Source: Methylophilaceae bacterium
GTDB taxonomy: Bacteria > Pseudomonadota > Gammaproteobacteria > Burkholderiales > Methylophilaceae
Direction: 5' to 3'
DNA: 64,000 nucleotides
Assembly (NCBI GenBank): GCA_048595445.1
Contig: JBJPGD010000021.1
Coordinates: 54,196-118,195, forward strand
The notes beneath the pieces were generated by a model, which had not been told where the DNA came from, made no database searches, and saw only the letters and a program-made list of their open reading frames with translations. Positions 36,161 through 48,848 of this stretch are shown piece after piece; the stretch's first letter is position 1; each line of letters begins with the position of its first letter. The translations under genes were made by a program, and so were the position numbers.

Positions 36161-37813
36161 ATGTTAGCTAACGTATTAGAAACTGCAAGAAAAACAATCA
36201 AACATGGCGTTTTTACTCAAGACATTGAGTGGTTAGATACGCTGTCTGGGATGACAGAATTAGAATCGTTAATTACGATTAAAGATGAGTTGTCCAAAAT
36301 TGATTTTCTTGACCTTAAGCGTTTGGAAAGCAAGGTAGATTTTGTGTTAGAGGTTGACAAATCTACTTATAAAAAAGTTAAACATATAACACATAACTAT
36401 TTGATTGAATTAAAAAATAATAAAGAGTTAAAAAAAGACATTCAAGTTGTAGCATATGAATATCATAGACAGTTGTATGCAGCTTATTCGCAAATCCTAG
36501 ATGCCTATCAGGCGCAGGAAAAAGTAAAACTTAGTGCAAAGAAAACAAATTTACTATTAGCGCGTTATTTAAATGCAACATTCATGATGTCAAAATGGCG
36601 TTATTTTGACGATCAGTCTGCCCCTATAGGTGTTTGGGAAAATGTGCACAAAGTCATCAAGCTTGCCGAAGAATTGGCAATGATCAACCAACATATATTT
36701 TTATATGATTTCCAGATTAAAGAGACAAGTATTGCGACTATTTTAAAACGCGGGTTTATGGTTGATACCTTACATAAAGGAAATTATAGCCAATTAGAAA
36801 TCGAGTTGACTGATCGCATATTAAAAATATGGGCGTCAAACCCATTGATCGTCAATACTTATAAAGCGGATCGTTATCATTTCTTTATACAGTTAGAAGG
36901 TGATAAAGGGCCGGACAGAATGCGGATGAAAGAAAAGTTCAGCAACTGTCGTTACTGGAAGACCACACGGCTAATCGATTTAATGGAGGCATACTTATGT
37001 GCTGTCGATATGCAAAAACCGTTAAGAGAATTTGGCTTAGAAAAAATAGCGCCTAGTTCTGTTGTCTTAAAATTATTTAAGAAGTTAAGAGTGGATTGGT
37101 GTGTAGAAGGGTATTCACGTCAACGCAGAGTCGAAGAAAGAAATCAAAAGAACAGCTTATTAAATGTTAGTCATGGCCTCGATTCTATTCATCAGCGCTT
37201 AATGCGTATACAAGTGCAGCAGCAAAAAGAAGCCGCGAAAGACGCAGGATTTACTTTTGAGTTAAATGCGACGCAACAAAATAACGATGCACCACCAGCT
37301 CAGCCTGCAAGAGTGCTAGGGTCTGAAAACTGGTGGATGGTAGATGAAAGCAAAAGTGGCTTTGCCGTTGATTTTGGTAAAGAACCTGCAGATTGGGTTG
37401 AAACTGGCGGCTTGATCGGTTATAGCGAAATGGGCTATCAGAAAACTTTTAATATTGCAGAAATTAGAAGTGTCAGAAAACTGCCCAATGGCGCATACAG
37501 AGCCGGGTTTAAAAAAATCTCTCACAATGTTATAGCGGTGAAAGTTAGTCGTGTAGAAAAAACATCGATTGCGCAACCAGTATCAGGTTTTTATGTAGAC
37601 GAAGGCGAAGAGAGCATCAACTATTCTGATGAATTCACAGGGTTGCTGGTTGACGATGATGGCAATAATTTCTCTAAGCTACTGATGCCAAGAAAACGAT
37701 TTAAGCGTGGTGGTACCTTTAATGTCAATATTGATGGAGAAAATCAATTTATAACGGCAGGGAAAGTCATTACAAAACATAATGACTGGATACTTTTTGA
37801 CACGCTTATTTAG
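36161..37813 (+). CDS. uncharacterised 550-aa protein, paralogue A, with PilZ-like QRRxxxR...DxSxxG signature
   Basis: Long ORF with AAAGGAAAAG upstream of the ATG. Collinear with the next ORF. QRRVEER at residues 321-327 and DESKSG at 395-400. Confidence 0.7.
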   Translation: MLANVLETARKTIKHGVFTQDIEWLDTLSGMTELESLITIKDELSKIDFLDLKRLESKVDFVLEVDKSTYKKVKHITHNYLIELKNNKELKKDIQVVAYEYHRQLYAAYSQILDAYQAQEKVKLSAKKTNLLLARYLNATFMMSKWRYFDDQSAPIGVWENVHKVIKLAEELAMINQHIFLYDFQIKETSIATILKRGFMVDTLHKGNYSQLEIELTDRILKIWASNPLIVNTYKADRYHFFIQLEGDKGPDRMRMKEKFSNCRYWKTTRLIDLMEAYLCAVDMQKPLREFGLEKIAPSSVVLKLFKKLRVDWCVEGYSRQRRVEERNQKNSLLNVSHGLDSIHQRLMRIQVQQQKEAAKDAGFTFELNATQQNNDAPPAQPARVLGSENWWMVDESKSGFAVDFGKEPADWVETGGLIGYSEMGYQKTFNIAEIRSVRKLPNGAYRAGFKKISHNVIAVKVSRVEKTSIAQPVSGFYVDEGEESINYSDEFTGLLVDDDGNNFSKLLMPRKRFKRGGTFNVNIDGENQFITAGKVITKHNDWILFDTLI

Positions 37814-37912
37814 CATTGTTACGCCATTCTACTTTTTTGTAAGAACCACTTCTAGGTGGTGCGAAATTCACAATAAGCGTCATATATCATTAAATGAGAA
37901 AGCTTCTTCACC

Positions 37913-39571
37913 ATGTTAAATAATGTAATGCATCAGGTTAATCAAGTATTCAGCCATCAGGCTTTACAACCCGAGGTTAATTGGGATGATGATTTTTCTG
38001 GAATGACAGAATTAGAGGCTTTGATTAAAGTTAAAGATAGCTTGTCAACAATTAACTTGCTGCAGAAGGCGAGTCTAAAAGATAACGTGCAATATATCTT
38101 AGACCTAGATGAAAAGACCTACCGAAAGCTTCAGAATATTACACATAACTATTTAACTTCTGTGAAAGGCAATAAAAAGCTAAGAACGATGATTGAGGTG
38201 GCGGTATTTGAATACCTTAGGCAGCTGTATGCAGTATATACATGGGTTGTTTCAGATTGCCAGTATCAGAATCAATTAAATTTTGATGTGGAAAGAATCA
38301 ACCTTATTTTGGCGCGTTATTTAAACACTATATTCATGATGTCGAAATGGAATTACTTTGATGGCCGACCTGCTCCTCTCGGTACATGGAGCAATGTGCA
38401 TAGTGCCATTAAAGAAGCTGAAAATTTATCAGTCGTGAATAAGAATTTATTTTTATACAACTTTCAAAAGAAAGAGATCAGTATTGCAACAATATTAGAG
38501 CGAGGTTTCATGCTCGATACCTTGCAAAAAGAAAGCTACACCCCGCTACAATTAGAACTTGCCGATAGAGTATTAAAGACTTGGTCATCTAACCCAGTCA
38601 TATCAAAAGAGTTTCACAAAGATGAGTATCAGTTTTTTATTCATTTAGATGAAGATAACAAGCCGCAAAGACTACGCAATGCAAAGCAACACCCTAACTT
38701 TCGTTATTGGAAAACAGCTGCTACTGTTGATTTGATTGAAACATACTTATGTGCCGTTGATACAAGAAAATCGCTAGATGAATTTAATCTCGTCACAATG
38801 GCAGCAACTGAAGATATCGTAAATTTATTTAAAAAGTTACGTGTAGATTGGTGTGTAAAAGGATATAAGCGTCAGCGTAGAAAAGAACAAAGGGTTGCTA
38901 AACAAAATGTGATTCGAGTAAGTTTAGGTATTGATCAAATTTGTGCGATGAATAAAAAAAGTGTGCAAATTAATACTAATCTAACAGTTTCAGAAACACA
39001 GCATTACGATTCAAGCTTAACGTTAGCGAAAGGGAATACGCTGAAACAGCCCAGTGGCAATCAATTTGATCTGTCTGGGTTGCAGAGATGGACGATGTTA
39101 GAAGAAAGTGATAGTGGTTTCTCTGTGGAATTAGATGAGGGTATGAGCATTCTAATTCGGGCTGGCTCTTTGGTTGGTTATAACGCAATTGGAAATAAGA
39201 GCAGAATAGCGGTTGCCGAAATTAAAAATGTTAAGAAAAATAAGAATGGCACCTATAGGGTGGGGTTAAATAAAGTAGCGAGCAGCGTTATAGCGACAAA
39301 ACTTTCGCGCGTGCAAAAAAATTATAAACAAGAAGCCACCCCAGATTATTACGTTGACGACGGAGAAGGCAATTTAACCTTTTCCACCGAGTTTGCAGGG
39401 TTGTTAGTTAATGATGATATTGCAGGAAAACTTAGAGTAATAACTCCGCAAATGCAATACAAGCGTGCACAACGCTATCAAGTCAATATGTATGGTGAAA
39501 ATCATGTGGTACTCGCAGGAGAAGTGGTTAAGCGCAACCGTGATTGGGTGTGCTTTGAAATAATCGCTTAA
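37913..39571 (+). CDS. uncharacterised 552-aa protein, paralogue B
   Basis: About 42% identical to paralogue A (42 of the first 100 residues by hand count). QRRKEQR at residues 321-327 and EESDSG at 397-402. Confidence 0.7.
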   Translation: MLNNVMHQVNQVFSHQALQPEVNWDDDFSGMTELEALIKVKDSLSTINLLQKASLKDNVQYILDLDEKTYRKLQNITHNYLTSVKGNKKLRTMIEVAVFEYLRQLYAVYTWVVSDCQYQNQLNFDVERINLILARYLNTIFMMSKWNYFDGRPAPLGTWSNVHSAIKEAENLSVVNKNLFLYNFQKKEISIATILERGFMLDTLQKESYTPLQLELADRVLKTWSSNPVISKEFHKDEYQFFIHLDEDNKPQRLRNAKQHPNFRYWKTAATVDLIETYLCAVDTRKSLDEFNLVTMAATEDIVNLFKKLRVDWCVKGYKRQRRKEQRVAKQNVIRVSLGIDQICAMNKKSVQINTNLTVSETQHYDSSLTLAKGNTLKQPSGNQFDLSGLQRWTMLEESDSGFSVELDEGMSILIRAGSLVGYNAIGNKSRIAVAEIKNVKKNKNGTYRVGLNKVASSVIATKLSRVQKNYKQEATPDYYVDDGEGNLTFSTEFAGLLVNDDIAGKLRVITPQMQYKRAQRYQVNMYGENHVVLAGEVVKRNRDWVCFEIIA

Positions 39572-40919: not shown

Positions 40920-41586
40920 CATTATCCGTTGTGAAGACTTAAAGAAAACCTATACCGGTTTAGATGTTGCCGTATTAAATGGTATTGATTTCAATGTAAA
41001 TAAAGGCGAGCAAATCGCTATTGTCGGCGCTTCTGGTTCAGGCAAAAGCACATTGCTCCACTTGCTAGGTGGCCTAGATACACCAACGAACGGCACAGTC
41101 GAGCTGCTTGGCAACAACTTAAGCAATATGTCTGAAGCGAGAAAAGGTCAAATCCGCAACGACTCCCTTGGCTTTGTATACCAGTTCCATCATCTGCTAC
41201 CAGAATTTACCGCCATAGAAAATGTCGCCATGCCATTATTGATTCGCCGTATGGAGCGTGAGCAAGCATTGGCCATGGCTAAATCTATGTTGGATAAAGT
41301 CGGCATGTCGCATCGTGTAGAACATATGCCAAGTGAGCTTTCTGGCGGTGAGCGCCAACGTGTCGCTTTAGCGCGTGCATTAGTAACTGAGCCAGCTGCT
41401 ATATTGGCCGACGAGCCAACAGGCAACTTGGATAGAGTGACAGCAGACCAAGTGTTTGACTTGTTGATTGAAATTAACGCAGTGTTGAATACTAGCCTAA
41501 TCGTTGTGACACATGACCTGACCTTGGCGAGTAAAATGCAAAGGCAATATAGATTAGAGGATGGTAAATTAGTGGCTTTTTCTTAG
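40912..41586 (+). CDS. lolD: lipoprotein-releasing ABC transporter ATP-binding protein
   Basis: Walker [10 protein letters not shown], signature LSGGERQR. The ATG at 40912 overlaps the lolC stop, so I rejected the ORF-track N-terminal extension. Confidence 0.93.
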
Positions 41587-41604: not shown

Positions 41605-41637
41605 TAAAAAAGGACAAGTGACACTTGTCCTTTTTTT
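41605..41637. terminator. bidirectional rho-independent terminator
   Basis: AAAAAAAGGACAAGtgacaCTTGTCCTTTTTTT. Confidence 0.75.
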
Positions 41638-41647
41638 AATGGCTTGC

Positions 41648-41953
41648 TTAGATGAAGTGTTTGATAAAAGTATAGCAGCCAGCTGCAGCAATGACTAAGC
41701 CAAACCATTCCATTGGTATCCAAAATAATGTGTGTTTGTTTTTTAGCTCTACTTCTTGGTTGGTTTCAGGGTCAACTAATACTTTACCTGGCTTACTGTT
41801 TAATTTTCTACCTACAAGATAAACTACAATTGCAGAAATAATTAATGCCGCTTCAGTTCCATAAGTCATTTCAGTACCGCCCATATCAAACAAGACCAGT
41901 AAAATAATGGGAATAAGCGCAGCTAAAAATCCAAACCCTTGCCAAACGATCAT
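41648..41953 (-). CDS. small 3-TM membrane protein, unknown function
   Basis: 101 aa. Strong SD GAGGAGAG 6 nt before the ATG. Hydrophobic segments. Confidence 0.55.
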   Translation of the reverse strand: MIVWQGFGFLAALIPIILLVLFDMGGTEMTYGTEAALIISAIVVYLVGRKLNSKPGKVLVDPETNQEVELKNKHTLFWIPMEWFGLVIAAAGCYTFIKHFI

Positions 41954-42163
41954 ACTTCTCTCCTCTTAACATGTAACATCATTATAGCTTTTTTGAACCA
42001 ATCATTATGATGGTTAAATGGCACTTCAAATACCAAAATTACTATACATTAATACACCTTATGCGTAAAACGTCACTAGAAAATAGAGACTGTTATTGGT
42101 TGGTTAAATAGCTCGTACCATTTTACGATTTTTGCTTAGCGGGTGGTGCTTTTTTAGCCACCT

Positions 42164-42604
42164 TTAAGTATTAGTCATCACAAAATAACTGATGACGATA
42201 TAGCGCATTAACTTACCTACCGTCACCAATATTAAAAACCAATGTAACCGAACACGAAAAATACCAGCAATCACGGTGAGAGGGTCGCCGATGATTGGCA
42301 CCCAAGCAAAACATAAAATAAACAAGCCGTATTGTTCAAAACGTCGCTTTGCATCTGTAAGATCATCCTCTGAAATGCGCAACCATTTTTTGATGACGCC
42401 TAAGCTAGCCCAGTAGCCTAAAGCATAATTGGTCAGAGATCCCAACACATTGCCAATGGTCGCAATTGTAATGAGTGCAATCGGCGATAAACCATTTAAC
42501 AATAGCGCGCCTAAAACAACTTCAGAACTCAAAGGCAAAATGGTTGCTGCTAAAAATGCAGAAACGAAAAGGCCGAAATAGCCGAATTCTATAAAACATT
42601 CCAT
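42164..42604 (-). CDS. YqaA/DedA (SNARE-associated) family membrane protein
   Basis: 146 aa. FLAATILPLSSEVVL...VPIIGDPLTVIAG pattern. Confidence 0.78.
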   Translation of the reverse strand: MECFIEFGYFGLFVSAFLAATILPLSSEVVLGALLLNGLSPIALITIATIGNVLGSLTNYALGYWASLGVIKKWLRISEDDLTDAKRRFEQYGLFILCFAWVPIIGDPLTVIAGIFRVRLHWFLILVTVGKLMRYIVISYFVMTNT

Positions 42605-42658
42605 GCTGATCAGTATTGACCGCTGGAATAATTTATTAGGTTATTTTCTAACATGAAT

Positions 42659-43228
42659 TTATATATTTCTACGATACAATGCAACAAGAATTAACACCAA
42701 ACAAGCGAACCCCATTACTGCTGGAAATAAAATTGTCGTTAATGAACAAACACTAAGCGCCGATACTACAACAAAATTACGCACCATAAAAATACCAAAA
42801 AAAGTTAAGTCTTCATCAAATGGGTGAGAATATACTTTTCTAATCGTCGGCATAAAGCCAATCGCATCAACGGCCGTTAGGATAACAATTGCCCATAGTG
42901 GATTGTTAGTTAAATACCAAAGTGGCAGAGATAACATTCCAGAAAGAAAGAATAGCCAATCCCACCTAGAGATAATAATTTCTGATTTTTTTACCCAAGC
43001 TACAAATGCAATGTAAATAGAAATAATGCCAGATAGGCCAATCGCTAAAACGCCAATCCCGCCACCACCTTCAACTTGTGCCAAAAATGCAATAAAAGTT
43101 GTTGAGCCCCAAATAATCCAAGAAAACACATGAGGTTTGGTTTTGCCTTTATTAATTGAAATGATGTAAGGGACAAAAGCCAATAGCGTTAAAGTGATAG
43201 CTAAAACACTCAAAAATTGTTGATACAT
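42659..43228 (-). CDS. multi-pass (6-7 TM) membrane protein, PQ-loop-like, unknown function
   Basis: 189 aa, hydrophobic throughout. Starts 19 nt after attC-like site D. Confidence 0.55.
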   Translation of the reverse strand: MYQQFLSVLAITLTLLAFVPYIISINKGKTKPHVFSWIIWGSTTFIAFLAQVEGGGGIGVLAIGLSGIISIYIAFVAWVKKSEIIISRWDWLFFLSGMLSLPLWYLTNNPLWAIVILTAVDAIGFMPTIRKVYSHPFDEDLTFFGIFMVRNFVVVSALSVCSLTTILFPAVMGFACLVLILVALYRRNI

Positions 43229-43246
43229 AACACCCTAAAATTAGTT

Positions 43247-43340
43247 GCTTAACGCCCGCTTAAACGGTGGAGCATATTGGCGCGGATTTTTGCAAAAATC
43301 GCGACAGTATGCGGAATCTGATTTGAGGCATTTGTTATAT
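43247..43340 (-). mobile_element. attC-like recombination site D (94 bp imperfect palindrome)
   Basis: The minus strand reads ATATAAC-AAATGCC...CGCGATTTTTGCAAAAATCCGCG...GCGGGC-GTTAAGC. It starts 5 nt after the stop of the 470-aa ORF. Confidence 0.55.
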
Positions 43341-43345
43341 AGTGT

Positions 43346-44758
43346 CTATTTAAATGGTCCGCAAACCAATGCTCGTTTTACTCCAGGTGTTAAAGTATCT
43401 ATGCCTTCGATTAATTTTTCTCTTCTAATTAGAACATCTGTAATTTGACTTGAATATTTTATAGCACTCTCTCTCATCATTCCCAACATTGGCCAGCCCC
43501 ACAATGCTGAAACTGTAACTTCCTCTTTAATAAAATGAGGCTCAGTTAAAAATGTGCAACTAAGTACAGATTCAACAGCACTTCTATTTGTCTCACTTCC
43601 GCCTACAAGATCAATCACAACTGAGCCTTTGGGAATTACTCTTTTTAGATGGTCATTACTTACAAGATAGGTTATACCTCTTAGTTCTCGCGGTAGTTCT
43701 GCACCATTTACAACCAAATCAACATCTTTTAACCAAAAATCTATCTTATCTTTAGCTGTTTGGGTGCGACCTAAAATATTGATATTTTTGAAGCCTTGAT
43801 TATATATTTCATGCATTGCGCCTTTTGCTACATTACCATAACCCAATACAACAACTTTTGCTTCACAGATATCTAATTGAGGTTTATTTTCTTTAAGTAG
43901 TTTAATCCCATACCTTGCACCTGCTTGTCCTGTTTCATGAAGGCACTGAATTCTTCGCAAGCCAAATTCAGAAGGTGTATGTGTTTTTCTATAATCAGCA
44001 ATTGCCATATCCCCACTTTTTAATACAAATTCATGAAGGTCAAAAATGTTAGAATTAGCCTCTTTTAATTTTTCAATTAATCTATTTAAATCGTTAAAAT
44101 CTTCACTGTCATAAAAATACAGAGTTTCACTACCTGTCTCTTTTAACTCTTCAAACTTTACATCTCTATGTAAAATATTTAGTGAATGGGGATTACGATT
44201 TCCTGCTCTTCTTACAGCGCCCGCTAATCTTTCATTTCGACCTATAATAAATATCTTTAGATTTCCAATTGTTTCATTATCAATAAAGCTTTTTAATGCT
44301 TCAGCCATCGCAGTTCGCGCTAATATTTGCTCATCGGTTTGGGCTTTAGGAGATTCAAGAATCTCTTCCATAGCGATAACATTTATTTGATTATCCTCAA
44401 GCATTTTTGCCCTATCTGGGAATGAATGAAAATGCGCCATACAAAACAGAGCGCAACCTTTTTTCATCTTAGATATAGACTCCAAAGATGGGCCTTTGAA
44501 TTTAATAATCATATCCTTACCTTTGTATATCTCATCTGCTTTTTGCATCACAGCACCATTTTTAAGATATTCTTCATCTTCAAAGTCCACACCTAGGCCA
44601 GCACCATATTCAACAAATACGTTAACCCCAACAGCTGTTAACTGTCCAACATCTTCTGGGGTTAAAGCAACTCTTTTTTCTAATCCACCTGGGTTTTCAG
44701 GAGATTCAATCTCTTTGACTAAAGCAATGTTTTTGAATGCTATTGATAATATTTTCAC
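43346..44758 (-). CDS. AlaDH/PNT-family-like NAD(P)-dependent dehydrogenase with a large internal insertion
   Basis: N-terminal KRVALTPEDV...VFVEYGAGLG..F.DEEY. Rossmann fingerprint VVVLGYGNVAKGAMHE near residue 300. 470 aa. GTG start. Confidence 0.6.
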   Translation of the reverse strand: MKILSIAFKNIALVKEIESPENPGGLEKRVALTPEDVGQLTAVGVNVFVEYGAGLGVDFEDEEYLKNGAVMQKADEIYKGKDMIIKFKGPSLESISKMKKGCALFCMAHFHSFPDRAKMLEDNQINVIAMEEILESPKAQTDEQILARTAMAEALKSFIDNETIGNLKIFIIGRNERLAGAVRRAGNRNPHSLNILHRDVKFEELKETGSETLYFYDSEDFNDLNRLIEKLKEANSNIFDLHEFVLKSGDMAIADYRKTHTPSEFGLRRIQCLHETGQAGARYGIKLLKENKPQLDICEAKVVVLGYGNVAKGAMHEIYNQGFKNINILGRTQTAKDKIDFWLKDVDLVVNGAELPRELRGITYLVSNDHLKRVIPKGSVVIDLVGGSETNRSAVESVLSCTFLTEPHFIKEEVTVSALWGWPMLGMMRESAIKYSSQITDVLIRREKLIEGIDTLTPGVKRALVCGPFK

Positions 44759-44815
44759 AATAATTCTTTTTCTATTTTATTATTGAATGCTGGGTTATTG
44801 GTTTCGTTATGTTTT

Positions 44816-45100
44816 TTATACATTGCCGAAGATTCTTGCAACGCACCGATTACAGCCCATTAAAGACACTATTAATGCCAAGGTGAAAAGCATAGCTAAC
44901 AATATGAAAAGTATGATTGTAATTCGTTCTTGTAATGATTTATTGCTTGAAAAATAAAATAACCCTGCGCTACCAACTAATTCACAAAGCGATAGCGTAA
45001 ACAATACAGGGCGCTTCCATTTCTTTTCAAGTATGTCACCCCAAAAACAGATAATATTTATAGTTTTGCAGGCTTGGCATGTTGAATTAATTTTTCTCAT
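44816..45100 (-). CDS. small 2-TM membrane protein, unknown function
   Basis: 94 aa with Cys-containing termini. Starts 16 nt after attC-like site E and is followed by an ACATAAC box. Confidence 0.45.
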   Translation of the reverse strand: MRKINSTCQACKTINIICFWGDILEKKWKRPVLFTLSLCELVGSAGLFYFSSNKSLQERITIILFILLAMLFTLALIVSLMGCNRCVARIFGNV

Positions 45101-45115
45101 GCTTCTATTTTATAA

Positions 45116-45202
45116 ACATAACGCCTGCTTCACCGGAAAAAGAAAGTTGCGTAGCGGAAGCAAAGCAGCTTTATTTTTTCCGCGTGTAAGTACTTGTTAG
45201 GC
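45116..45202 (-). mobile_element. attC-like recombination site E (87 bp imperfect palindrome)
   Basis: The minus strand reads GCCTAAC-AAGTACTTACACGCGGAAAAAATAAAG...CTTTCTTTTTCCGGTGAAGCAGGC-GTTATGT. The arms pair with single-base bulges. Confidence 0.6.
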
Positions 45203-45259
45203 ATCTGGCTCAATATGGCCCTTGGCTCCAGTATCCCGCTAGCAACCTCTCTGTCGTCG

Positions 45260-46011
45260 TCACGCATGCGTCCAGGTGACCTCTCCATCCCAGTCGCCCC
45301 AGCTGTGAATGGGACGAAGCCGTGTGAACGAGGTGCGGTCCGACAGGAGCCCCGCCTTATCTTCGTCTATACGAGTGCGGTGCGCACCGGGATGATAGGC
45401 CGCCTGCCGCATCCCCTCGTCCGAGTGCCAGAGCGACAGCGTGAAGCCGTCACGTCCATCGAAACCTCCGCGAAACGCGGACCGGCGTAGGTTTGATGCT
45501 TGCGCCCCGAAGGAATCCAACACCTCGACAACGCCCGCCACAAATCGCTTGATGCGCGGAAGGGTTGCAGCGTCGCGCGACGCGAACCCCGCGAGGTAAG
45601 GACGATCAGCGGCCCGCCCGGATCGACGGGGGCGGCACGGACGGCATCGCCATTCTGGAGATGCCCGCGCCAGTTGACCTCGCCGCGATGAGAGACCGGA
45701 ACGCTAAGGCAATGCCAAGCGGCTACGGTCTCTCCGAGCCAGGGCATAGCGTCACCCGGCGCGTCTACCATCGCCTCCGCGGCATCACGGCTGTGCCAGA
45801 TGCCCACGCCGCCCCAGATGTCGCTCACGCCGGTGATCATCCCGTCCGGGCCGACGGCGTAATGCGGCCCGAACAGCCAGCAATCAGGCCCGGCAACGGG
45901 CGGAAAGACCCGTTCGATGGACGAGACCGGCTCGGGAAAACGCAGGCGATGAAATGTAACCCAGTCGTGGTCATTCGTATCTGTCATTGAATTAGCCTTA
46001 AATAGCGACAT
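45260..46011 (-). pseudogene. high-GC foreign gene, frameshifted (CrtA/DUF3291-like small monooxygenase by recollection)
   Basis: Two overlapping minus-strand frames (46011 to about 45600, and about 45600 to 45260) join into one protein of roughly 245 aa. 62-73% G+C against about 28% in the flanks. AAGGAG lies 8 nt before the ATG at 46011. Confidence 0.6.
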
Positions 46012-46040
46012 TGTGAAGTCTCCTTTGCAGGTAGTCTGTG

Positions 46041-46104
46041 ATGTCTAACAGGGTTTATCAAACAGCGTGTCTGATAATGTTTTATATAAATTGGAAGTAG
46101 ACAT
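46041..46104 (-). mobile_element. attC-like site F (64 bp, more degenerate)
   Basis: The minus strand reads ATGTCTAC...TTATCAgacacgctgtTTGATAA...GTTAGAC. The consensus GTTRRRY box lies 32 nt before the ATG at 46011. Confidence 0.4.
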
Positions 46105-46466
46105 AGCAGAAACTCCTTTTTATTCATTGTTTTATATTCACTTTACTTGATAATTTTTTATTTATCAAGCATGTCTACTTTGCTTTTCTATTATCAATAT
46201 GTGGTGATGTCTGTTAATTGGGTAGTTGTTAAAATTAGGCTTATATTTATATATATATCAATGGTTTATTTATTTTCTTATAAATCGCGATATCAGACAA
46301 TTATTGAGGTGATAGAGGCAGTCTATACATCCCTAATTCAGTTATTCCTTTTTCTCCAGTTACTTTATAAACTTGTGCTTCTATGTACGGATGCGCTTCC
46401 ATTTGTCAGATTGCTATCTTTACAAGATAATGTTTTCTTGAAGTATAAAAATAATAAATTAACTAA

Positions 46467-48848
46467 ATGATAGTCTTTGCACTAGGCTTTGTCTTTGGCG
46501 CTTGGCTGTTACAACAGCAAGTGGCATTGCCTTCACTTTATTGGCTGCCGGTTATTGCGATTAGCCTTTTCCTGTTTGTTTTACTACGTCATTTTAGAGC
46601 ACCCCAATATTGTCGATTGCCAGCTGTGTTTATATCAGCAGGTTTGGTTGGTTTTTTCTATGCAGCATTATTTGCTACTTTGCGTTTAAATGATGAGCTG
46701 CCCAAAGCATGGGAACAGAAAAACATTGAGATAGTCGGTGTGGTTGCTACCATGTCAGAAGTCACCGCGCGTGGTGAACGTTTTCGATTTGATGTAGAGC
46801 AAGTGCTAACAGGTGATGCACAAGTGCCTAAGCATATTGGGCTAAGTTATTACAAACCTGGCGCTTGGTATCAATCGGCAGATACAGTCGATGAAATGGC
46901 ATTGCTGGCACCCGCAAAGTTCAAGGCAGGGGAACGTTGGCGGTTCACCGTAAGGCTTAAGCGGCCACATACCACAGTCAACCCACACGGCTATGATTTT
47001 GAGGCATGGGCGCTGGCACAGAATATCCGCGCCATGGGTTCCATACGTAGTAAAAGCGGCATGCACAAGATTTCAGGTTTTGTTTGGCGACCAAGTTATA
47101 TGGTTGAGTATTGCCGTGAGAAAGTTGGCAACCGCATTAGCCAGGTACTTGCCAATAAACCCTATGCTGGTGTTGTTCGTGGTTTGGTCGTGGGTGATGA
47201 TAGTCAAATTACGACCAAAGATTGGGACGTGTATTTACGTACAGGCACCAATCATCTAATGAGCATTTCTGGCCTGCACATCACAATGTTGGCAGGTCTG
47301 GCATTTAGTGTGATTGCCTTTTTATGGCGTCGCAACCCGCGACTGGCACTGCGTATGCCTACAAGACAAGCGGCAACGATAGGGGGTGCTTTGGTCGCCT
47401 TGCTCTATGCTTGTTTAGCTGGTTTATCCGTCCCCACACAGCGTACGCTCTATATGCTGATGACGTTTGCGGTCGCGTTATTGCTGAGTCGACGTGTGCC
47501 ACTATCACGCGTACTGGCAATTGCTTTGATGGTGGTCGTGCTATTGGATCCCTGGGCAGTCATCGCTCCCGGCTTTTGGTTGTCATTCTCTGCGGTAGCA
47601 GTGATTGCTTATGCCACCGTTAATCGATTAAAAATTAGACATTGGCTATTAGAGGCAATCAATACGCAATGGTCAGTGACGTTGGGCTTATTGCCATTTT
47701 TAATTTTAATGTTTGGGCAAGCGTCAGTTGTGTCACCGATTGCCAATGCGCTGGCTATTCCCATCATTAGTTTATTGGTCGTGCCTTTAGCTATTTTAGG
47801 TGCTTTATTACCACTAGATTTTATTTTGCATACATCACAAACAATACTTGAAATCTGTATGCATGTGCTCAATTGGTTAGCCAGTTCACCCTTCGCCACA
47901 TGGCAGCAGGCTGCTGCACCAATGTGGGCAATTGGGTTGGCCATGCTGGGCGTACTTTGGTTGTTGTTGCCACGCGGAATGCCACAACGTTGGCTGGGTT
48001 TAGTACTCATGCTACCAATGTTGTTTGTCGCTTTACCTAGGTTGGAAGAAGGGGAAATGAAAGTCACTGTATTAGATGTTGGCCAAGGCTTATCCGTCGT
48101 TGTGCAAACAGCAACGCATGCAATGGTGTATGACACAGGCCGACAATATAATGAGGAAAGTGATGCTGGCAGTAAAATTGTCGTACCTTATCTACGCAGT
48201 CAAGGCATTAAACAGCTAGATGCGATGGTGATTAGTCACGATGATAATGATCATAGTGGAGGGGCGGCATCAATGCTGTCACAAGTGCCGATTAATTGGC
48301 TAGCCAGCTCGTATGAGATGCCAGCCACTAAAGAGCTGATGCCCAGACAATTAAAGTGCTATGCTGGCCAAAAGTGGCGCTGGGATGCGATTAGGTTTGA
48401 AGTGCTGCATCCGAGCGTGCAAAGCTATCAGGACATTAATATTAAAGATAACAATCGAAGTTGCGTCATTAAAGTCACTAGCCGTTACGGCAGCATATTA
48501 TTGACTGGGGATGTGGAAAAAGAATCTGAGCAACTGTTATTGAAAACACACAAATATAAACTAGCTAGTGATGTGATAGTAGCGCCACATCACGGCAGTA
48601 AAACTTCCTCAACGGAAAGTTTTATTAAAGCGGTTAATGCCAAGCATGTTATTTTTACCGTAGGCTATTTAAATCGTTTCAAGCATCCTAAATCCACCAT
48701 CATTGCACGCTTCGCTAGCCGCGGGTCACAGGACTATCGATCAGACCATCATGGCGCAATTACATTAGATTTTATGCGTGACAACACGCTTAAAGTGAGT
48801 GCGGAACGTATAGTTAATAAAAAATACTGGTATGACAAATATTTATAA
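46467..48848 (+). CDS. comEC: DNA internalization-related competence protein ComEC/Rec2
   Basis: 793 aa. Multi-TM competence domain plus C-terminal metallo-beta-lactamase fold (ISHDDNDHSGG). Confidence 0.93.
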   Translation: MIVFALGFVFGAWLLQQQVALPSLYWLPVIAISLFLFVLLRHFRAPQYCRLPAVFISAGLVGFFYAALFATLRLNDELPKAWEQKNIEIVGVVATMSEVTARGERFRFDVEQVLTGDAQVPKHIGLSYYKPGAWYQSADTVDEMALLAPAKFKAGERWRFTVRLKRPHTTVNPHGYDFEAWALAQNIRAMGSIRSKSGMHKISGFVWRPSYMVEYCREKVGNRISQVLANKPYAGVVRGLVVGDDSQITTKDWDVYLRTGTNHLMSISGLHITMLAGLAFSVIAFLWRRNPRLALRMPTRQAATIGGALVALLYACLAGLSVPTQRTLYMLMTFAVALLLSRRVPLSRVLAIALMVVVLLDPWAVIAPGFWLSFSAVAVIAYATVNRLKIRHWLLEAINTQWSVTLGLLPFLILMFGQASVVSPIANALAIPIISLLVVPLAILGALLPLDFILHTSQTILEICMHVLNWLASSPFATWQQAAAPMWAIGLAMLGVLWLLLPRGMPQRWLGLVLMLPMLFVALPRLEEGEMKVTVLDVGQGLSVVVQTATHAMVYDTGRQYNEESDAGSKIVVPYLRSQGIKQLDAMVISHDDNDHSGGAASMLSQVPINWLASSYEMPATKELMPRQLKCYAGQKWRWDAIRFEVLHPSVQSYQDINIKDNNRSCVIKVTSRYGSILLTGDVEKESEQLLLKTHKYKLASDVIVAPHHGSKTSSTESFIKAVNAKHVIFTVGYLNRFKHPKSTIIARFASRGSQDYRSDHHGAITLDFMRDNTLKVSAERIVNKKYWYDKYL

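Follow-up and report, generated by a model that had tools for sequence, protein, structure and literature searches.

A probable cluster of integron cassettes with no integrase nearby, inserted between lolD and comEC in a marine Methylophilaceae genome

How did six minus-strand open reading frames (ORFs) come to lie between lolD and comEC in an uncultured marine Methylophilaceae bacterium? The source is a metagenome-assembled genome (MAG) labelled with this family, and we analysed a 64-kb stretch of it, referred to here as the window, in which lolD (plus strand) ends at 41586 and comEC (plus strand) starts at 46467. The ORFs in the gap encode proteins of 101, 146, 189, 470 and 94 amino acids, together with a GC-rich gene. 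The original prediction read them as integron-type gene cassettes associated with three attC-like sites, named D, E and F, with no integrase in the window. A CALIN, a cluster of attC sites that lacks an integron integrase, is defined by at least two attCs less than 4 kb apart and no integrase nearby (Cury et al., 2016; PMC4889954). With two intact attCs and no integrase close to them, we conclude, the locus is very probably such a cluster: a small group of cassettes without an integrase in cis, carried by a 4.5-kb segment inserted between lolD and comEC. The central point of the prediction thus stands, supported by covariance-model matches to D and E, the attC geometry of both sites, the recurrence in another genome of the 470-aa cassette, whose attC there is homologous to D up to a break at the G|TT crossover, and the absence of the interval from relatives.

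The insertion is delimited by comparison with the closest available relatives (L004, L006, L007 and L011; ComEC 54-75% identical) and with NORP104 (L012). In the first four, lolD and comEC are 12-55 bp apart and the whole island is missing; in NORP104 the 101-aa gene alone sits between them. Nucleotide homology with the relatives is lost at about 41588 and about 41955 and returns at about 46446-46459. From this spacing and these breakpoints, the segment from about 41956 to 46445 (4.5 kb) is read as an insertion. The original prediction proposed checking whether the content of the interval varies cassette by cassette among related genomes; the variation seen is the presence or absence of the island as a whole, with no partial array among the relatives compared. 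No tRNA gene marks the island, and neither direct nor inverted repeats flank it.

The integron integrase IntI reads the folded bottom strand of an attC through its R and L boxes and extrahelical bases, and cuts between the G and the TT of the R' box. We considered how closely D and E conform to this type of site, using as geometric references six attCs of class 1 integrons from plasmid records (aadA1, aacA4, blaVIM-4, arr-3, cmlA5 and dfrA1). All six share one layout: a 7-nt R'' box, a 5-nt spacer, a 3-bp L box, a bulged base at the ninth nucleotide after AAC, a stem, the L' triplet, 5-6 nt and GTT. Site E, the attC of the GC-rich cassette (87 nt, 45116..45202, minus strand), consists of R'' GCCTAAC, the spacer AAGTA, an L'' arm CTT[A]CAC[G]CGG... 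(bulged bases in square brackets), an L' arm ...CCGGTGAAG, the spacer CAGGC and R' GTTATGT. Site D, the attC of the 470-aa cassette (94 nt, 43247..43340, minus strand), consists of R'' ATATAAC, the spacer AAATG, an L'' arm CCT[C]AAA..., an L' arm ...TTTAAG, the spacer CGGGC and R' GTTAAGC. Set out in the reference layout, E reads AAC-AAGTA-CTT[A]CAC / GTGAAG-CAGGC-GTT and D reads AAC-AAATG-CCT[C]AAA / TTTAAG-CGGGC-GTT. Both sites therefore have the architecture of an attC, with R'' and R' boxes, paired L'' and L' boxes, an unpaired spacer and an extrahelical base on the R''-L'' arm.

The two sites occupy gene gaps about 1.8 kb apart, within the 4-kb limit of the CALIN definition. As predicted, the distance from the preceding stop codon is 5 nt for D and 57 nt for E; from their other end to the start codon that follows there are 18 and 15 nt, respectively. 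When all segments of 50-150 nt bounded by TAAC...GTTA on both strands of the window were ranked by how symmetrically the folded bottom strand pairs, E came first and D fell within the top group. The minimum free energy fold of the bottom strand of E shows single-base bulges on the L'' arm (z = -2.7), and the full-length fold of D is unexceptional (z about -1.4). A blastn search of plasmids with site D returned nothing.

Rfam holds no attC family and gave only chance-level matches in the 40-48 kb region of the window. We therefore relied on covariance models built from known attCs, with no sequence from the window among the seeds. The first model (R1), made from the trimmed arms of the six class 1 attCs, recovers other plasmid attCs and an array in a metagenome contig (L025). 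With filters off it matched neither D nor E, a silence that is an artefact and uninformative because R1 could not report matches longer than about 66 nt, known long attCs being truncated or lost. Full-length attCs aligned too poorly with MAFFT for modelling, and alignments made by cmsearch were used instead. The second model (R2), from 14 full-length attC matches without Vibrio cholerae repeat (VCR) or arr-3 seeds, placed E as the top match in the window, at 15.7 bits and with exact boundaries. On the same scale, about 30 real VCRs in the cassette array of Vibrio sp. HDW18 (L037) score 10-28 bits and arr-3 scores 20-26 bits. The third model (R3) was built from 35 sequences comprising class 1 attCs, the metagenomic array of L025 and Vibrio VCRs. 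Across both strands of the 64 kb it gave two significant matches only, E (45202->45116; 27.2 bits, rough E-value ~8e-5) and D (43340->43247; 25.2 bits, rough E-value ~3e-4), at the coordinates originally proposed. The next-best match in the window reaches 12.7 bits, leaving a clear gap in score. R3 found no match at E<=1 when applied to loci of related Methylophilaceae and of other betaproteobacteria, about 100 kb in all.

The 470-aa gene provides a view of the same cassette in other genomes. Cassette 3 (43253..44793, minus strand) joins this gene (43346-44758) to attC D and lacks about its first 16 nt, which read TTATATATAAACAGAT in other copies. The one recognisable domain of the protein is an AlaDh/PNT domain at the N terminus; its match to alanine dehydrogenase/transhydrogenase covers residues ~20-150 only and lies far under the family cut-offs, and PADLOC defence-system models gave no match to the cargo of the array. 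Homologs 71-95% identical occur in MAGs labelled Stahlbacteria, Sulfurimonadaceae, Alteromonadaceae and Thermodesulfobacteriota, and amino-acid identity is 90-95% across MAGs labelled Methylophilaceae, Sulfurimonadaceae and Stahlbacteria (L038-L043). On four independent contigs the gene lies among short co-oriented ORFs. The homologs with flanking attCs (L038, L039/L040 and L041) are 90-93% identical: R3 detects four attCs in L038, of which the last lies immediately upstream of the gene, a single attC in that same position in L039/L040, and a pair bracketing the gene in L041. In L041, where the gene is 93% identical, the downstream attC is homologous to the whole of D, the loops differing by a 10-nt indel. 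Identity between the window and L041 stops exactly after ...GGGCGTT, the window continuing with AAGCAAC and L041 with TCAATG. The break falls at the integron G|TT crossover point. The cassette in L041 and L038 starts with GTTATAT, the exact complement of the R'' box ATATAAC. Both the 470-aa gene and the GC-rich gene are found in or beside attC arrays of unrelated contigs with different neighbours, as expected of mobile cassettes, and the 470-aa cassette looks highly mobile.

Cassette 1 (45122..46048, minus strand) consists of the foreign GC-rich gene, with ORF pieces at 45260-46011, and attC E; its 5' limit is placed provisionally at G|TTAGAC (46049->46043). The gene has 65% GC in a neighbourhood of 29-45% and a genome of ~35-42%. 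It carries a single frameshift near 45590, in a G-rich run, and was reconstructed as one gene; the frameshift could mark a real pseudogene or be an assembly error. The reconstructed protein (~245 aa) belongs to no Pfam family and resembles spheroidene monooxygenase only faintly (20 bits, the cut-off being 300). Its homologs, 77-87% identical, lie in or beside attC arrays of metagenome contigs (L016-L024 and L025/L026) with varying neighbours. One homolog, P0003, occurs in at least five different upstream neighbourhoods and in L016/L019 is placed after three attCs detected by R3; another, P0001, adjoins a seven-attC array with ParE and HicA cassettes.

Several observations accompany these loci. 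Ahead of the start codon of the P0003 gene stands the 5' half of the local attC (GTTCAACCATGCGCTGCAGCG), and a palindrome that is repeated, AATCACCAAAGGATGGAAAGGACCGGAGCGCGCTGGTGATG, is likewise found upstream (L016 2230-2585; L021 940-1015); the attC model found no attC directly flanking this gene. Positions 7825-12675 of L025 (JGI 3300045968 contig Ga0491452_0000003, 614 kb) hold a homogeneous GC-rich attC array of the form GCCTAAC...GTTAGGC with ParE/antitoxin and HicA cassettes, and no intI was found within 12.8 kb of L025. Two independent 2-kb contigs identical to the window (L002 and L003; Logan SRR30938155/6) start within site E and end within the 189-aa gene. That the contigs break off at E may stem from upstream content that varies, or from coverage falling over the GC-rich cassette.

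Between cassettes 1 and 3 lies a cassette that has lost its attC. Cassette 2 (44806..45121, minus strand) contains the 94-aa ORF (44816-45100), opens with TTATGT of the R' box of E, and ends with an R'' remnant, ACATAAC, 3 nt 3' of the stop codon. This box is indeed the exact complement of the GTTATGT that opens the cassette, as had been noted; it lies at 44812->44806 and not at the 44808->44802 first given. It occupies the position at which other copies of the 470-aa cassette have their 5' boundary GTTATAT, and homology to those copies starts about 16 nt later. No covariance model matches at the remnant, and metagenome contigs yielded no homolog of the 94-aa protein. On the simplest reading of these boundaries, the 94-aa ORF would once have been its own cassette, and a deletion would have taken most of its attC together with the first nucleotides of the next cassette, leaving one of the three cassettes without its attC. 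A single two-gene cassette holding the 94-aa and 470-aa ORFs, from the R' box of E to the R'' box of D, was set aside; other copies of the 470-aa cassette begin at GTTATAT just 5' of the gene.

The third proposed attC, site F, has been rejected. Its real span is 46043..46103 on the minus strand (46103->46043), where it forms an imperfect inverted repeat TGTCTAC...GTTAGAC. It has no AAC, fails the L-box geometry, with no L''/L' pairing beside the boxes, and is matched by none of R1, R2 and R3. Its GTTAGAC (46049->46043) agrees with the complement of the R'' box of E at six of seven positions, the one-mismatch relation originally described, and at most may be the 5' junction of the first cassette. 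Upstream of the array is a non-coding, AT-rich leader of 29% GC (46050..46445, minus strand) that is missing in relatives and forms part of the insertion. It contains a promoter-like site directed at the cassettes (46217->46190), in a promoter scan that stood at chance level only, and no similarity to IntI.

Downstream of D and still within the insertion (42164..43228, minus strand) are a gene for a 189-aa membrane protein (42659-43228) and a 146-aa gene of the VTT/DedA family (42164-42604), neither with an attC of its own. Both are missing from the relatives, and no covariance model matched the DNA after D that contains them. The 189-aa protein has homologs of 83% and 64% identity in two other contexts, neither with an attC nearby, and its gene was not seen in other cassette arrays as the 470-aa and GC-rich genes were. 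A candidate attC following the VTT gene (ATTTAAC...GTTAAGA, 42113-41975) was discarded for its asymmetric arms and its lack of any model match. Thus, the predicted number of six ORFs is correct, the GC-rich one being a single frameshifted gene, and cassette cargo is demonstrable for three of the six: of the others, the 101-aa gene also occurs in a relative, and neither the 189-aa nor the VTT gene has an attC.

Along the minus strand, the AT-rich leader is followed by cassette 1 with E, cassette 2 with its R'' box only, cassette 3 with D, and then the 189-aa and VTT genes. Each cassette would once have been a promoter-less circle of one ORF and one attC, integrated by the tyrosine recombinase IntI. 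We infer that this integrase acted in trans or was later lost; the route by which the cassettes would have arrived is likewise a matter of reconstruction. Array activity has probably ceased and decay begun, because the window has no intI, one cassette is frameshifted, one attC is deleted and the L box of D carries a mismatch. D and E could still serve as substrates if an integrase were supplied.

A number of results weigh against the CALIN assignment. The original prediction described RYYYAAC and GTTRRRY boxes, and a strict search for RYYYAAC...GTTRRRY missed D, E and F alike; the actual boxes are looser, the R'' of D being of the type RYRYAAC and the R' of E of the type GTTRYRY. D has one mismatch in its L box and was missed by R2, which had no VCR seeds. 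Only two intact attCs are present in the array, and the failure of F as a third must be counted on the same side. The simple cassette-insertion model predicts a closing attC after the 189-aa and VTT genes if these are cassettes, and none is there. The covariance models are home-made with a shortened calibration, which makes their E-values rough, and the model of IntegronFinder is not the one used here. The description of the array as integrase-less holds for the scope in which a tblastn search with IntI1 was made, namely the 64-kb window plus 10 kb either side of the array; the best match there has E = 15, in agreement with the predicted lack of intI in the window. Of the features of a complete integron (intI, attI and a Pc promoter beside the first cassette), the locus shows no IntI similarity and only chance-level promoter matches; attI has no general consensus.

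We considered how such an array might otherwise be explained. Were D and E repetitive extragenic palindromic (REP)-like elements or terminators with chance AAC and GTT ends, one would understand why both are intergenic just after stop codons, why the fold of D is at z about -1.4 and why the boxes depart from the strict consensus. We regard this as highly improbable. REP-like copies were proposed as what would overturn the prediction, and within the scope covered there are two sites only in 64 kb and none in the loci of relatives. Neither stem is followed by a T-run, the sole terminator-like match being a 5-bp stem inside D on the opposite (plus) strand. Conservation lies in the R and L boxes rather than in the stem, and D travels with its gene in another genome, where homology ends at the GTT crossover.

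The origin of the cluster is a separate matter, for which we considered insertion at an attG-type site by an integrase in trans, integrase loss, and a platform elsewhere in the genome. A trans-acting integrase may have used an attG site of the GWT type to insert the cassettes upstream of a 189-aa gene already in place, in DNA where the leader was contiguous with that gene and the VTT gene; the junctions would be CCCTG|TTAGAC on the left and GGGCG|TTAAGC on the right. This possibility, which we rate as less likely than not, would explain the GTT-only site F, the non-cassette genes directly after D and the lack of an intI remnant, and it draws on a route that has been shown experimentally and to which small CALINs and single attC sites lacking integron-integrases (SALINs) are ascribed (Loot et al., bioRxiv 10.1101/2022.09.11.507474). 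Against it, no empty site was found, a 20-mer from the leader has no match in metagenome contigs, and the leader, 189-aa and VTT genes are missing from all relatives, so that their separate acquisition must be assumed. In another arrangement the array would belong to a complete integron, lying apart from it or split off from it: a functional satellite whose cassettes are still excised and reshuffled by an integrase encoded, with attI, elsewhere in the genome. About half of CALINs are in replicons encoding IntI (Cury et al., PMC4889954), and D and E are still good attC matches. We think this unlikely given that the window and the extra 10 kb contain no IntI-like sequence, that the frameshifted cassette, deleted attC and D L-box mismatch are signs of decay, and that related MAGs have no attC at the locus.

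Outside the array but adjoining it, the 101-aa membrane protein gene (41648..41953, minus strand) occupies the same locus in NORP104, with 55% amino-acid and 71% nucleotide identity. A resemblance to R' boxes is seen 20-40 nt 5' of its ATG (GGCGTTAGC in NORP104, L012 4527-4600; GTTAAGA in the window, 41954-41990); the attC covariance model gave no hit on these motifs, and the resemblance may be chance. Between the convergent lolD and 101-aa genes is a perfect 15-bp hairpin (41606-41636) with A and T runs at its flanks, which looks like a bidirectional terminator common to the two. Upstream of lolC lies a tandem pair of paralogs (36161-39571), each ~550 aa long and with a FimW_N domain; the pair is kept in the relatives.

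Comparison with known systems places the locus closest to other CALINs, with which it shares at least two attCs less than 4 kb apart, the lack of a nearby intI, promoter-less ORFs in one orientation with an attC after each, and cargo other than antibiotic resistance. Its small size is typical, two-attC CALINs making up 1362 of 2961 (PMC4889954). It differs in having been called by home-made models rather than IntegronFinder, in the loss of one attC, and in belonging to a larger insertion with a leader and two non-cassette genes. As in cassettes inserted at attG sites and in SALINs (bioRxiv 10.1101/2022.09.11.507474), the cassettes lie outside an integron platform and the upstream junction is a GTT site without attI or attC features; in contrast to those cases, there are several cassettes here rather than one, and an attG origin would have to be assumed.

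The two sites also recall different integron families. D has the ends of VCRs, the attCs of the sedentary chromosomal integrons of Vibrio (TAACAAAYGCCTCAA... and ...GCGGGCGTTA), together with 5-nt spacers and a bulged C at the same position: its termini TAACAAATGCCTCAAA... and ...TTTAAGCGGGCGTTAA nearly match the VCR ends GTAACAAACGCCTCAAGAGGGA and AGCCCCTTAGGCGGGCGTTAA, taken from two published VCR primers (PMC6125998). In contrast to VCRs, D is 94 nt long rather than ~120-130 nt, its centre is unrelated, the host is a betaproteobacterium, and the array is not homogeneous, D and E differing outside their boxes. Like the class 1 attCs of dfrA1, cmlA5 and blaVIM-4, D and E have the canonical box order and geometry, and E resembles dfrA1 in particular (TAACAAGT..., the bulge at the ninth nucleotide, ...CAGGCGTT). 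Unlike the class 1 sites, D and E have AT-rich stems, their cassettes carry no resistance genes, and their setting is chromosomal.

CALINs are a common and well-described kind of element, and the value of this one is modest: an uncultured marine Methylophilaceae bacterium now has a documented example. It also offers clean natural cassette bookkeeping, in the homology break at G|TT and in the R'' box left after an attC deletion, and it flags two cassette-borne protein families that cross distant phyla, the 470-aa AlaDh/PNT-N-domain protein and the ~245-aa protein of GC-rich source. One could go further and suppose that the 470-aa protein is an unusually successful cross-phylum cassette, perhaps with a strongly selected function, and that the array records cassette capture at an attG-type site in a marine methylotroph without its own integron. 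We consider this combination distinctly unlikely; if its second part were true, the locus would be a natural case of genome insertion, a route whose demonstrations to date come mainly from the laboratory. If the genome is truly without intI, the locus would support the view that small CALINs can arise by cassette insertion at ordinary genomic sites.

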